From IMG/VR virus record IMGVR_UViG_3300033066_001917, positions 136,246 to 200,245 of that record: DNA of 64,000 nucleotides; one strand, given 5' to 3'. This stretch comes from a virus. Its lineage: Duplodnaviria > Caudoviricetes. The notes under the pieces are model-generated. The model searched no databases. It saw nothing but the letters and a program-made list of their open reading frames with translations, and had not been told where the DNA came from. Position 1 is the first letter of the stretch, and every line of letters starts with the position of its first letter. Positions 5,786 through 54,045 of the stretch are shown here, in pieces. The position numbers and the translations under genes are program-made.

Positions 5786-6286
5786 CTAAACGTATGGGGC
5801 CCAGGTCGGATGGATCTCAGCCGGGAGGGCGGAATCCACCGAGACCGGACGGGCAGGTACGGTTCGCAGCACCATCTTTGCCTGCTCCGGTGTACGGTCA
5901 GCCTTTTTCGCATTGCAGGGCTGGCACGACGCCACGATATTGGTCCAGTCCGTCTTCCCACCCTTGGAGCGCGGGAGAACGTGATCCAGGGTGAGCTCTA
6001 CCCCGGAGAAGGTCTTGCCGCAGTACTGACAGCAGTAACCGTCTCGGCGGTAAACGTTCGCACGCGAGAACCGGGCACGACGCTCCTGCCGGGCGTACTT
6101 GCGCAGTCTCACGACTGAGGGCATCTGGATCGTGAGAGACGGGGATGAGACAGGGATATCGTAGGATTCTAGGACATCCACCTTTCCGAGGAAGTCGAGC
6201 GTGACCGCCCGCTCCCAGGGGATGACCCCCATCACTTCATACGAGGCATTGAGGAGGAGAGCAACGAGGGACATGACGATGACCAT
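5786..6286 (-). CDS. HNH endonuclease (McrA-like)
   Basis: RDGYCCQYCG, TLDHVLPRSKGG, NIVASCQPCNAKK. Confidence 0.92.
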   Translation of the reverse strand: MVIVMSLVALLLNASYEVMGVIPWERAVTLDFLGKVDVLESYDIPVSSPSLTIQMPSVVRLRKYARQERRARFSRANVYRRDGYCCQYCGKTFSGVELTLDHVLPRSKGGKTDWTNIVASCQPCNAKKADRTPEQAKMVLRTVPARPVSVDSALPAEIHPTWAPYV

Positions 6287-6781: not shown

Positions 6782-6800
6782 TGCTTTCCAACCTACTTAT

Positions 6801-7816: not shown

Positions 7817-7942
7817 TAGAGATGGTTGGATTTGAACCAACGTCCTGCGCCTGTTTTATCCGATTAAACTACATCCCCCTTACGGAAGAGGTGGGATTCG
7901 AACCCACAATCTGGCACTGTTCCGCCTCAGAACTTCATCTCT
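7817..7942 (-). ncRNA. twin-elbow tRNA-like RNA with no anticodon loop
   Basis: two D arms, two T arms (TTCGAAT, TTCAAAT), AGAGATG/CATCTCT outer stem, shared GTGCC/GGCGC helix. Confidence 0.78.
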
Positions 7943-8022: not shown

Positions 8023-8173
8023 ATGTGACGGGTTGGGTACCGTCCCCGATTAGATCGGACTATTTTTTTGACCCGGAGTTTCCGGTATTCCCCAGCTAGG
8101 GGTCTGCTGCGGGTGCGGCCCCCGATGAGCTGCGATATCATGATCGCAATCGGGACTAAGCGTCACCCTCTCG

Positions 8174-8257
8174 TGTCCGGGGATGGAGTTGAACCACCCC
8201 ACAAAACCGTACGGCTTTTCACCATCATGTTTTATGGGCGCCCTTCGCGCCAGGGAC
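8174..8257 (-). ncRNA. degenerate tRNA-like element
   Basis: GCGC-GAAGG-GCGC hairpin, CCAT/ATGG stem, long extra arm, GGTGG-TTCAACT-CCATC T arm; imperfect acceptor. Confidence 0.45.
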
Positions 8258-8258
8258 C

Positions 8259-8408
8259 TGATTCATTGAATCTAATCAGAGTCGGGGAGTTGAATCCCGC
8301 GCAATTCATCCTGCCACCATGGCATCACGGACTCGAACCGTGCGGACTACTTTACCGAGGTCTCTCGGTTACGCCAACCGTGGATCTCTGATTAGATTCA
8401 ATGAATCA
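8259..8408 (-). ncRNA. structured RNA closed by a perfect 23-bp terminal stem
   Basis: inverted repeat 8259-8281/8386-8408 enclosing several hairpins, two with T-loop-like sequences. Confidence 0.65.
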
Positions 8409-8480
8409 TGGTGGAGGTAGAGGGAGTCGAACCCTCTCGTTTCGCGTGCAAGGCGAAACTCTAGCCCACTAGCTACCCCC
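8409..8480 (-). tRNA. tRNA-Ala (TGC)
   Basis: G3:U70, TTCGC-CTTGCAC-GCGAA, ACCA end; short D loop. Confidence 0.9.
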
Positions 8481-9021
8481 TTTCGTGATAGGGGACCATT
8501 CTTGTTTTCAAGGCATGGCACCAGACACATAAAACTTCAAGATTACTTAGATTATTGTTACTCCTGTTACCATCTATATGGTGAACATCAAGCATTCTAA
8601 TTTCTTTCCCATATCCGCAAAGGGAACAAATCGTACCGTGAAGCCCTAATGCTTTTGCTCTGTAAGAGGTTTTGCCCGTGGCATAATGATCAGGTTGAAC
8701 GGCTGTAATTCCACCAATATGTTGGGCTAGTTCTTTGCATTTTCTGTCGCAGAAAGATAATCCGGATTTTGATACACTTAATTTTGAGGGTATCCGAGCT
8801 ATGGTTTCACCGCACTGGGCACATTGTGTTGTGACTCTATTTTTTCGATGGAGAGACGAACAATGCCGACTGCAAAACACATTGCCCTTCAAAGTATGTT
8901 TTGGTCTATATGTGGGTTTCCCACATTGTAAACAGGATACCTGATATAACTTCCTTACACGGTTGTCATATTCTGACGAAACAATAGCAGTGGGGATCAT
9001 AATCTTATGTTTGCTATGCAA
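8473..9021 (-). CDS. HNH endonuclease with N-terminal Zn fingers
   Basis: LDVHHIDGNRSNNNLSNLEVLCVWCH; AT-richer than flanks; stop codon lies in tRNA-Ala. Confidence 0.88.
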   Translation of the reverse strand: MHSKHKIMIPTAIVSSEYDNRVRKLYQVSCLQCGKPTYRPKHTLKGNVFCSRHCSSLHRKNRVTTQCAQCGETIARIPSKLSVSKSGLSFCDRKCKELAQHIGGITAVQPDHYATGKTSYRAKALGLHGTICSLCGYGKEIRMLDVHHIDGNRSNNNLSNLEVLCVWCHALKTRMVPYHERG

Positions 9022-17197: not shown

Positions 17198-17277
17198 TGG
17201 GAAGTGATGGAATTGAACCATCATTACATTGTAGGGTTAACCCCCTACTTTGGTCCTAGTCTTTGGATGAACTTCCC
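17198..17277 (-). ncRNA. tRNA-like RNA with aberrant anticodon arm
   Basis: GGGAAGT/ACTTCCC-A, GATGG-TTCAATT-CCATC; central arm GTAGGG-GGTTAA-CCCTAC. Confidence 0.62.
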
Positions 17278-31064: not shown

Positions 31065-31076
31065 AAACAAAAACCA

Positions 31077-31161
31077 TGCAGCGTGAGGGAATCGAACCCC
31101 CTCTGATCCTAAGACCTCCCGGGTTACGGCCGGGACCCTTCCCATTCAGGCGCAACGCTGC
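31077..31161 (-). tRNA. tRNA-Tyr (GTA), C33
   Basis: CCCGG-CCGTAAC-CCGGG, long variable arm, A73. Confidence 0.8.
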
Positions 31162-40351: not shown

Positions 40352-40435
40352 ACGCAGATGGTGGAGTCGAACCACCACAATACCCCACACACCCTGGCGG
40401 GCGACTCACCGGAGTCCTTTTCGTTGGGATCTGCG
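40352..40435 (-). ncRNA. tRNA-like element (acceptor + T arm, non-tRNA middle)
   Basis: CGCAGAT/ATCTGCG, GGTGG-TTCGACT-CCACC. Confidence 0.6.
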
Positions 40436-41125
40436 ATAGGGGCAATCACCCCTGATTCATGCAATCACTACAAATGCAAGAGTAAGCGACCCCGGGACAG
40501 GGGGCAAGACACCATTCACACTCGTTGATCTCAGGATCCCGAAGGCACTTCGGACAAACAGACCAAGGATGGTCCGTCTCTTCACCACAAACGGTACACG
40601 GAACAACGATTTCCATGGGATTCATTGTGAGAGCCCGAAGGAGACCCGGGGAAACATCCACATGCTGGCGTGTGAAGGACTCCTCAAGGTCAAGGAAACC
40701 GTCACCAAGGTCTTGGCGAATCGTCAAAACCGTGCCCTTGGAGAAAACCTCCCGATACACAGCCTTGATTGACCCATTGACCGTCTTCCCACACCACTGG
40801 TAGAGAGGATATGTTAGGGTCGTAACGTCTCCCGTGTTCATACCTCAAACTCCTGATGGGGGGCCCAACCGTCGCCCTCGCCCGGATAATAGACCCGGCT
40901 ATCGAGATACAGAGTCCCGGTGTGACTGATGGCTACACAATTAGCCGTCACAACCCCTGGGCGAATCAGAGTTGGATTGTGAACAGAAACACCCTTTGAC
41001 CGAAGATTATCGATCCTGGAACGGATTTCCTTCTTATCCATCTCAGTGATTGACCGGCCCGTTTCATTGATGAGAACCATAAGTACCTCACAACCTCTTA
41101 CGGAGCATGGCTTGCTTTTGGTTGG

Positions 41126-53930: not shown

Positions 53931-53937
53931 GAATGCG

Positions 53938-54045
53938 ATCCATAGGCTGCGGTCGAATCCGCAGCCGTTCTATTCTGGATGTTCATCTGGGGGGTCATGG
54001 TTTGAGCCTTCGGACTACTTTACTCTACTGAAGAGGACTATGGGT
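53938..54045 (-). ncRNA. structured RNA related to 8259..8408
   Basis: shares GTAAAGTAGTCCG and GATGAA; CCATAG/CTATGG closing stem. Confidence 0.55.

Follow-up and report, generated by a model that had tools for sequence, protein, structure and literature searches.

Extra small stable RNAs have been known in phage tRNA clusters since the 1970s. The locus analyzed here raises the question of whether another such RNA, of a kind without a described family, is encoded in the tRNA array of a large uncultured phage. The window, that is, the whole stretch of DNA under study, comprises 64,000 nucleotides (nt), positions 136,246 to 200,245 of IMG/VR record IMGVR_UViG_3300033066_001917. It forms the terminal 64 kb of this 200,245-bp record, for which CheckV gives a completeness of approximately 38%, and all coordinates below are positions in the window unless a contig is named. 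The original prediction had proposed an unrecognised conserved structured RNA that is present twice, each time beside tRNA genes. We refer to copy 1 (8408-8259, minus strand) as el1 and to copy 2 (54045-53938, minus strand) as el2. El1 is a conserved, tRNA-derived structured RNA without a described family, and el2 shares part of its architecture.

The terminal stem, the hairpins and the 13-nt sequence common to the two copies were all found where they had been predicted, on the minus strand, which is also the strand of the tRNAs (Table 1). El1 is 150 nt long and starts 0 nt past the encoded CCA of a tRNA-Ala. No other separated perfect inverted repeat in the 200-kb record is as long as its terminal helix, P1, whose arms do not recur elsewhere, even with 5 mismatches allowed. 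The folding energy of el1 is -69.8 kcal/mol, which corresponds to a z-score of -6.8 when compared to shuffled sequences.

To compare el1 between strains, we relied on contigs fetched from public assemblies by exact-protein look-up. Near-identical contigs were found in wastewater and river metagenomes from 12 studies, but most of them are 99-100% identical across el1 and el2, and hence uninformative. A divergent allele of el1 was found in a river strain (L058:596-741, 146 nt), recovered in three runs (L058, L059 and L090) that match the array downstream of el1 at approximately 99%. The terminal helix of this allele, GGAGACCUAAACCAAACCGAGG / CUUCGGUUUGGUUUAGGUCUCC, is unrelated in sequence to P1 of el1, and is nonetheless paired over 22 bp: 12 to 14 of the 22 pairs are double-changed and one is G-U, with pairing kept throughout. 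Compensatory substitutions also changed P2 (ACCAGG-AGAU-UCUGGU in the allele, with two double changes and one G-C to G-U), the D-like hairpin, P4 (GCU-UGGA-AGC, one double change) and T arm 2, which reads as a canonical GGUGG-UUCGAGU-CCACC with two double changes. Two blocks are invariant between el1 and the allele, namely AAGUAGUCCG together with T arm 1, whose stem is unchanged and whose loop differs at one position (G>A), and AGGAUGAAUUGC, where all 12 positions are the same and the flanking stems differ.

Our first structure model contained 28 core pairs, of which 96% were paired and 7 double-changed. RNAalifold independently added two long-range helices, Ha and Hb. Ha pairs CGUA with UUGCG in el1 and GGCA with UUGCU in the allele (one double and one single compatible change), and Hb pairs GUCC of the 13-mer with GGAU at 8308-8311. 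The final core model has 35 pairs, 98.5% of them paired and 8 double-changed, and none of 500 shuffles reached these values. When the pairing partners were slid by one to three columns along the el1 core, only zero or one double change was left. An acceptor-like inner helix (UGGCGU/AUGCCA) that we had considered in el1 would require a two-column register shift in the allele, and was dropped in favor of the D-like hairpin, Ha and P4. Moreover, the alleles carry G-U pairs in P1, Ha, P2 and Hb, which would be A-C mismatches on the opposite strand; the structure therefore belongs to the minus-strand RNA. These data support the conserved structured RNA that had been postulated: el1 is very probably an RNA structure under selection, and we also favor, with less confidence, its existence as a discrete stable RNA. 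The statement that stems differ while linkers are kept holds strictly between el1 and the river allele, and only loosely between el1 and el2.

In the fold that we propose, the elements of el1 would follow each other, from 5' to 3', as P1, 2 nt, a D-like 3-bp hairpin with an NGGN loop, Ha, P2, AAAGUA, GUCC, T arm 1, P4, GGAU, GAA, UUGC, T arm 2 and P1. They may form a tRNA-like four-way junction of P1, the D-like hairpin, Ha and T arm 2, in which P1 would take the acceptor position with T arm 2 beside its 3' strand. In place of the anticodon arm, Ha would open into a branched domain made of P2, Hb, T arm 1 and a second GG-loop hairpin. P4, which is this second hairpin, is the least certain helix, with competing pairings.

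Table 1. Coordinates of el1, el2 and neighboring features in the window
Feature	Position	Strand	Details
HNH endonuclease genes flanking the tRNA array	8473-9021 and 5786-6286	minus	
tRNA-Ala(UGC), CCA encoded	8409-8480	minus	Directly upstream of el1; ARAGORN and Rfam
El1 P1, 5' strand, 23 nt, UGAUUCAUUGAAUCUAAUCAGAG	8386-8408	minus	Perfect pairing with 8259-8281
El1 D-like hairpin, CCA-CGGU-UGG	8374-8383	minus	Loop GG invariant; allele UCU-UGGG-AGA, 2 of 3 pairs double-changed
El1 helix Ha, 5' strand, CGUA	8370-8373	minus	Partner 8300-8303; RNAalifold
El1 hairpin P2, ACCGAG-AGAC-CUCGGU	8354-8369	minus	6 bp, AGAY tetraloop
El1 13-mer, GUAAAGUAGUCCG	8343-8355	minus	End of P2, AGUA strand and GUCC (5' strand of Hb)
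El1 T arm 1, CACGG-UUCGAGU-CCGUG	8326-8342	minus	Canonical T-arm motif in motif scan
El1 small hairpin P4, GCCA-UGG-UGGC	8313-8323	minus	GG in loop
El1 invariant AGGAUGAAUUGC plus G	8300-8312	minus	GGAU (3' strand of Hb), GAA strand, UUGCG (3' strand of Ha)
El1 T arm 2, CGGGA-UUCAACU-CCCCG	8283-8299	minus	Abuts 3' strand of P1
El1 P1, 3' strand	8259-8281	minus	Perfect pairing with 8386-8408
El2 closing stem, 5' strand, CCAUAG	54038-54043	minus	Partner CUAUGG at 53940-53945
El2 hairpin, CUCU-UCAGU-AGAG	54023-54035	minus	
El2 13-mer, GUAAAGUAGUCCG	54011-54023	minus	AGUA, then GUC; identical to el1 13-mer
El2 GAUGAA (within AGAUGAA)	53982-53987	minus	GAU pairs with GUC of the 13-mer; GAA opposite AGUA
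El2 T-arm-like hairpin, GGCUGCGG-AUUCGA-CCGCAGCC	53945-53966	minus	Abuts 3' strand of closing stem (53940-53945)
T-arm motif sites outside tRNAs, in the window	31068-31150, 40355-40454, 17206-17222, 7817-7942	minus	
T-arm motif sites outside tRNAs, in G000:C1	~4129, 131694, 131777		

Between the invariant blocks AAGUAGUCCG and AGGAUGAAUUGC, complementarity extends over GUCC/GGAU and over UUGC/(G)GCA|CGUA, an arrangement that places AGUA opposite GAA. In the bulged-G motif of sarcin-ricin and loop E RNAs, a 5'-AGUA strand runs into a helix whose opposite strand runs into GAA-3'. At the level of sequence, the same arrangement recurs as AGUA-GUCC...GGAU-GAA in el1 and its allele and as AGUA-GUC...GAU-GAA in el2, invariant in all three. 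AAGUA-GUCC / GGAU-GAA may thus represent Hb plus a bulged-G motif rather than linkers, and such pairing would account for a linker sequence that is frozen while the stems drift. The resemblance has its limits, since the sarcin-ricin loop ends in a GAGA tetraloop and here the helix would instead close a three-way junction (el1) or a 25-nt loop (el2). The putative AGUA...GAA module looks like a protein-binding site.

The T-loop-like hairpins that had been noticed in el1 are two tRNA-type T arms, in a set of helices supported by covariation. It had further been suggested that they might form an interdigitated T-loop platform. T-box Stem I, which also has an S-turn, the RNase P S-domain and the L1 stalk do resemble el1 in having two T-loop motifs in one RNA, but their T-loops interlock, as a bulge and an apical loop in one helix region. 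Those of el1 instead cap separate branches, each an ordinary T arm with a 5-bp stem and a 7-nt loop. In addition, a GG-loop hairpin lies near each T arm, as in the ordinary elbow between D-loop and T-loop, and no T-box or RNase P match was found; the platform is thus not supported. Two T loops and two GG loops could instead give el1 two ordinary tRNA-type elbows.

How close is el1 to a tRNA? As in canonical, class II, selenocysteine (tRNA-Sec) and allo-tRNAs, acceptor, D-like, T-arm and extra-arm elements meet at a four-way junction; the T loops (UUCGAGU and UUCAACU) are tRNA-like, and the element lies among tRNA genes. The two canonical T arms and a weak tRNA-Sec-like alignment of the river allele, its best Rfam match (20 bits versus a cut-off of 47), support descent from a tRNA. 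Unlike a tRNA (RF00005) or tRNA-Sec (RF01852), whose acceptors have 7 and 8-9 bp, el1 has an acceptor of 22-23 bp, no 7-nt anticodon loop in the position of the anticodon arm, and a second T arm. No tRNA model matches el1, and ARAGORN at default settings reports none; at an 80% threshold it returns a poor tRNA-Ser(cga). That el1 is a working non-canonical tRNA, of the Ser(CGA) or Sec/allo-tRNA kind and released from P1, would draw on this call and on the tRNA-Sec alignment of the allele, on T arm 1, which can formally be read as an anticodon arm (CACGG-UUCGAGU-CCGUG, CGA), and on the 6 bp and 4-nt loop of P2, which are like those of a tRNA-Sec D arm. Yet the scores are far under threshold, in alignments full of non-pairs, and the spacing is not that of a tRNA (11 nt between the supposed D and anticodon arms, 12 nt before the T arm, and the acceptor of 22-23 bp). 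Loop position 37 is G in one allele although a codon starting with U would be read, and the phage already encodes a normal tRNA-Ser(CGA). We consider this possibility hardly credible.

A resemblance to Y RNA stems had been described as weak, and so it proved. YrlA RNAs resemble el1 in having a long terminal stem around tRNA-like hairpins and a GUCCG-like motif, and they are tRNA mimics unable to decode, as el1 may be. Their termini, however, are on the side of the anticodon stem, with a loop-closed acceptor, and those of el1 are on the acceptor side. The YrlA modules follow the order V-T-AS-D, and the motif (GNCGAAN0-1G / GGUCCGA) lies near the 5' end (PMC4201824), whereas AGUCCG of el1 is internal (positions 61-66 of 150) and reads GUCCGC. 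A YrlA-like Y RNA would bind Ro60/Rsr, encoded either in the host or in the portion of the phage genome beyond the record, through GUCCG, and would recruit an exonuclease through its tRNA-like part. Besides the terminal stem, this idea can appeal to the similarity between AGUCCG(A) and the GGUCCGA contacted by Ro60, to phages known to encode YrlA (PMC4201824) and to a record that holds only 38% of the genome. Nearly all best YrlA matches lie within 4 kb of a Ro60 gene on the same strand (PMC4201824). In the 200-kb record, by contrast, the YrlA family RF02553 (cut-off 69 bits) reaches at most 25.9 bits, on tRNA junctions and never on el1 or el2, and the same junction matches occur in 13 of 14 control genomes. 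A search for TROVE/Ro60 (PF05731) returned no match in the 200,245 bp, of a genome only about 38% complete in this record, and was positive in control genomes; RtcB is also missing from the 200 kb. Since the motif is internal and paired in our model, and module order and termini differ, a Y RNA is largely refuted and very improbable.

We then asked whether el1 belongs to any described family or has relatives elsewhere. At gathering score, Rfam 15 matches only tRNAs in the window and neither el1 nor el2, on which matches with E<=10 are noise only; no known family thus accounts for either copy, as the prediction of an unrecognised RNA implied. No support was found for a C/D-box RNA, kink-turn, hammerhead, T-box or tmRNA. 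A mini RNase P RNA, considered for its resemblance to the GGAAAGUCC and AGAUGAAU blocks, was rejected, with no P4-type partner for the 13-mer and no Rfam match. A retron RNA was discarded, as the 200 kb contain no reverse transcriptase (PF00078), and so was a short open reading frame (ORF), as the 25-codon frames of el1 and el2 have only 'MN' in common. Exact-motif scans did not extend the family either. The pattern TAAAGTAGTCCG-N15-45-GATGAA has 23 matches in viral contigs, approximately the chance number, all coding-like and without the architecture. The pattern AAGTAGTCCG-N5-TTCRA-N12-40-GATGAA has none in viral contigs; metagenome contigs contain 29, all lacking a 5-bp T stem, and genome contigs 20. 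For these last, the top score was 11.9 bits (E>0.6) with R1, a covariance model of the el1 core built from el1 and the L058 allele. Comparison of the region with GenBank phages by blastn returned only T-arm-sized matches inside tRNA genes. A locus search with two neighboring proteins found no relatives, and the only match of the protein upstream of el2 among 5.8 billion proteins is itself.

Within the phage, tRNA-like structures that are not tRNAs are a general feature. The 200-kb record contains 14 canonical T-arm motifs outside the tRNAs called by ARAGORN, most with an abutting 7-bp acceptor-type helix and a non-tRNA interior, and nearly every spacer of the array holds another tRNA-like structure. 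One of these elements, at 40355-40454 on the minus strand, sits directly upstream of a ribosome-binding site. Another, just downstream of el1 (8167-8258, minus), also has a divergent river-strain allele (L058:742-835), in which the T arm has changed with pairing kept (GGGGUGG-UUCAACU-CCAUCCCC versus GUGGAGG-UUCGAGU-CCUUCCC). Across the whole 200-kb record, R1 finds nothing except el1. In a search of 76 kb, its single other significant match is an unannotated class-II-like tRNA at 31067-30981 (22.4 bits, E 9e-4), which likewise speaks for tRNA descent of el1. Neither ARAGORN nor the Rfam tRNA model at gathering score called this tRNA-like gene, which lies on the minus strand beside tRNA-Tyr. 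Its acceptor is 7 bp long, its D loop reads AAAGUGGUCCA and its anticodon loop UUGUGGC (GUG); the variable region comprises 18 nt, the T arm is canonical, and the U-CCA end is encoded.

Is el2 a second member? The 200,245-bp record contains the 13-mer GTAAAGTAGTCCG at exactly two sites, each on the minus strand, and allowing one mismatch adds none. By our estimate, it is not unusual for two arbitrary sites of a 200-kb genome to have a 13-mer in common; what is rare is such a match between two tRNA-adjacent spacers on the same strand, at about 0.01-0.07 after multiple testing. The presence of GATGAA in both copies is not significant alone, and gains meaning only from its ability to pair with the 13-mer (AGUA-GUC...GAU-GAA) in each of them. 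The GUC/GAU pairs are present in the minimum-free-energy fold of el2. The two elements have in common a hairpin followed by the AGUA-GUC...GAU-GAA module, within a tRNA-like frame composed of a closing stem and an abutting T-arm-like hairpin, and by a rough estimate this combination is far beyond chance. Like el1, which lies 0 nt after tRNA-Ala, el2 adjoins a tRNA gene, 9 nt upstream of tRNA-Asn. The claim that the motif is present twice therefore stands for its placement, hairpin and module, but not for the full structure. R1 scores 122-135 bits on el1 and its alleles and only 2.9 bits on el2 (E 0.38 in 600 nt, filters off), el2 is without the central T arm and the small hairpin, and its fold is weaker (z = -2.9 versus shuffles). 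The closing stem of el2 is invariant across strains, and hence gave no covariation test. One contig, L039, departs from this: a 9-nt block substitution at ~1255-1265 (window 53936-53944) removes the 3' strand of the stem. This is a low-coverage ENA contig (coverage 2.5), and the change may be an assembly error.

In two sister strains, L033 and L038, el2 is split. Their el2 is interrupted precisely between CAG and AUGAAC, inside its GAUGAA, by 948 additional bases (insertion point 53987|53986; L033:3367-4314, also in L038), which have 68% G+C compared to 51-53% in the flanks. The segment encodes a C5 cytosine methyltransferase (Pfam PF00145, 1e-33), whose phage homologues align to residues 53-325 of 341. 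Its ORF starts at an AUG 14 nt past the 13-mer, preceded by GAAGG; without a change of frame it traverses the 3' hairpin of el2 and extends into tRNA-Asn. The segment also keeps the frame of a short ORF that is present in the window form. Both junctions read RUGAA, and the two forms may differ by an insertion or by a deletion between these repeats. The halves of the closing stem are approximately 1 kb apart in the methylase strains. That these strains live with el2 split means that el2 is dispensable as one piece. The same strains keep the module as AGUA-GUC...GGU-GAA, enclosing the ribosome-binding site and start codon of the methylase, which hints that the AGUA...GAA module has a role on its own. 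We read el2 as a reduced paralogue or partial copy, with no second full member, and it is probably decaying.

The state of el2 bears on the possibility that both elements are decaying tRNA genes, that is, pseudogenes of a fast-turnover array with no present function. Such an origin is suggested by the T arms, acceptor-like closures and D-like hairpins, by the 11 nt that the 3' hairpin of el2 has in common with the T arm of the neighboring tRNA-Lys (GCGGAUUCGAC), by the gene that splits el2 in some strains and the loss of its closing stem in L039, and by cassette indels elsewhere in the array. Pseudogenes fit el2 much better than el1. Pairing was kept through 8 double changes in the core of el1 and 12-14 in P1, and two blocks stayed invariant amid changed surroundings, which indicates selection and not decay. 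We consider pseudogenes an improbable account of the pair.

Another explanation arises from the position of el1. It may be processing punctuation only, existing to be cut by RNase P, RNase Z or RNase III and without any function in trans; the cuts would clean the 3' end of tRNA-Ala and separate neighboring RNAs, as in mitochondrial transcripts. The absence of any spacer between the CCA of tRNA-Ala and P1 is as expected from such a signal, and so is the length of P1, whose 22-23 bp make it as long as a substrate of RNase III. The same holds for the many non-tRNA elements with acceptor and T arm in this genome, including the one upstream of a ribosome-binding site (40355-40454). Furthermore, the minus strand from the upstream gene to el1, inside the array, showed neither a promoter of the sigma-70 type nor a terminator. 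Contigs from two metatranscriptome runs span 8178-8557 and 8123-8476 with zero mismatches. They establish presence in RNA libraries, and not transcription, ends, levels or processing, and are compatible with read-through transcription from the upstream gene. Read depth adds nothing to this, as uncovered bins and the high depths at tRNA positions, which come from other organisms' tRNAs, carry no information. Three observations speak against punctuation. The L058 allele keeps the whole structure without a preceding tRNA. The two invariant blocks of 10-12 nt, the second T arm and the compensated branched interior would be superfluous for a processing signal. Finally, RNase P selects its site at a distance of about 12 bp from the T loop, and the foot of a helix as long as 23 bp would not be cleaved by it. 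Among the rival explanations punctuation is the strongest, though we consider it rather unlikely.

El1 is also a point of recombination. Three gene arrangements diverge at its 5' edge, with either an HNH gene and tRNA-Ala, a 145-aa gene and tRNA-Ala, or a 115-aa gene and no tRNA. Some strains have the upstream block of HNH, tRNA-Ala and small genes, others have a shortened form of it, and others lack it. The 115-aa gene upstream of the L058 allele is absent from the record of the window, and is unrelated to the 115-aa ORF upstream of el2. A natural recombinant (L089:1855-2001, also in L091, hence in two runs) has its 5' half from the river allele and its 3' half from the window allele, with the crossover within a 20-nt identical core, so that the strands of P1 are no longer complementary. 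P1 pairing is therefore not needed for viability. Taken alone, the coincidence of the arrangements with the 5' edge and the crossover inside the identical core would fit a DNA-level recombination or homing boundary of the variable upstream block, with the RNA structure incidental. The same can be said of the HNH genes that flank the array, which recall segB in the tRNA cluster of phage T4, and of the almost purely Watson-Crick P1. T4 segB drives the inheritance of the T4 tRNA region. However, six short internal helices carry compensatory changes, and these, like the strand-specific G-U pairs and the tRNA-type T arms, are characteristic of RNA and not of DNA. Each arm of the inverted repeat occurs only once in the genome, with no target-site duplication, and a site can be a hot spot of recombination and an RNA gene at the same time. 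A purely DNA-level boundary is, in our judgment, improbable. A miniature inverted-repeat mobile element was rejected on similar grounds, as the arms are unique and unrelated to those of the allele, and the flanks (...ACCA| and |GGUCC) show no duplication.

Among known systems, the nearest kind is that of the small stable T4 RNAs rnaC (species 1) and rnaD (species 2), to which el1 is linked by analogy. As late as 2022 they were described as RNAs of yet unknown function (PMC9697503). In T4 the order is segB, tRNA-Arg, rnaD (119 nt) and rnaC (139 nt), with segB annotated as a homing endonuclease within the tRNA cluster; the block of HNH, tRNA-Ala and small genes beside the array analyzed here resembles this arrangement. 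Like el1, a non-tRNA RNA gene directly beside tRNAs on the same strand, rnaC and rnaD directly follow a tRNA (tRNA-Arg, gaps of 1 and 6 nt) in a cluster with a homing endonuclease gene. RnaC also has a closing stem with a T arm, CCGGG-UUCGAAU-CCCGG, beside its 3' strand. Unlike el1, it has a single T arm and lacks both a 22-23-bp helix and the AGUA...GAA module. R1 reaches 8.8 bits on the T4 cluster with filters off, a local T-arm match only, which is not homology. We also observed that rnaC (L100:1909-2047, minus) contains the octamer GAGUAGCG twice and is tRNA-like at its 3' end.

The rest of the genome offers few further clues. The minus strand carries nearly all genes of the window and all 22 tRNAs that ARAGORN calls in it; the whole record has 37. 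Few window proteins match phage families, the recognizable ones being a T4 Rnl1-like RNA ligase, DNA methyltransferases and the two HNH endonucleases. Genes for a CCA-adding enzyme, RtcB and reverse transcriptase (PF00078) were sought in the 200 kb and none was found. A possible amber suppressor lies outside the window, where ARAGORN reports a tRNA with the anticodon CUA, labeled tRNA-Pyl (G000:C1:94376-94449, minus). Several strains have a 1,261-nt cassette of small ORFs added to the array (window 6787-6796; L040:2230-3490), bounded by GGTTGGA repeats at ribosome-binding sites. Gain and loss of cassettes in the array seems to run through short repeats at translation starts.

The explanation that we put first, at about even odds of being right as a whole, is that el1 is a tRNA-descended small structured RNA gene that acts as a protein-binding tRNA mimic. 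El1 would be transcribed with the tRNA array of this large uncultured wastewater and river phage, and may be freed from the polycistronic tRNA transcript by host tRNA-processing enzymes together with RNase III at P1. It would then build up as a stable RNA, presumably unable to decode because no anticodon loop occupies the position of the anticodon arm. As a tRNA mimic, it could offer its elbows and the bulged-G motif to a protein that recognizes tRNAs, possibly a host factor that targets or modifies tRNAs or a protein of the phage. The mimic or decoy mechanism itself is more tentative than the identity of el1 as an RNA gene, and we would not bet on it.

Several observations weigh against this explanation. 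Comparison is limited to two independent alleles, and the invariant helices Hb and T arm 1 have no covariation support, while P4 faces alternative pairings. The proposed fold lies 8 kcal/mol above the minimum free energy in both alleles; the model therefore rests on comparison and not on energy, and an excess of this size is not surprising in an RNA rich in junctions. Almost all pairs of P1 are Watson-Crick, which is unusual for an old RNA helix, and the recombinant without P1 complementarity was recovered from two runs. The allele in L058 does not follow a tRNA, and tRNA-Ala is missing upstream of it. The bulged-G motif was read from the letters alone. RNA-library coverage is low, and the contigs could derive from DNA. 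Finally, exact-motif scans of viral, metagenome and genome contigs found no homologue outside the phage lineage, and no candidate protein partner was identified.

A more specific version of the tRNA mimic, which we consider unlikely, is that el1 is the first characterized member of a class of phage anti-defense or host-takeover RNAs. As a non-decoding RNA in the shape of a tRNA, it would use its two elbows and the sarcin-ricin-like bulged-G motif to sequester a factor of the host that recognizes tRNA or the ribosomal GTPase center, with its neighbors in the array and T4 rnaC and rnaD as functional analogues. The factor might be a tRNA-cleaving defense nuclease, a tRNA-modifying enzyme or a translation factor.

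The el1 family is so far confined to one uncultured phage lineage. Within it, the comparison of strains reveals that elements of the tRNA array are recombination boundaries for gene cassettes. Beside T4 rnaC and rnaD, el1 is a second, unrelated example of its kind, with a much clearer architecture, and its invariant AGUA/GAA module provides a handle for mutagenesis and pull-down. If these RNAs are indeed tRNA mimics directed against host factors, they would constitute an RNA layer of the conflict between phage and host, alongside the phage tRNAs.

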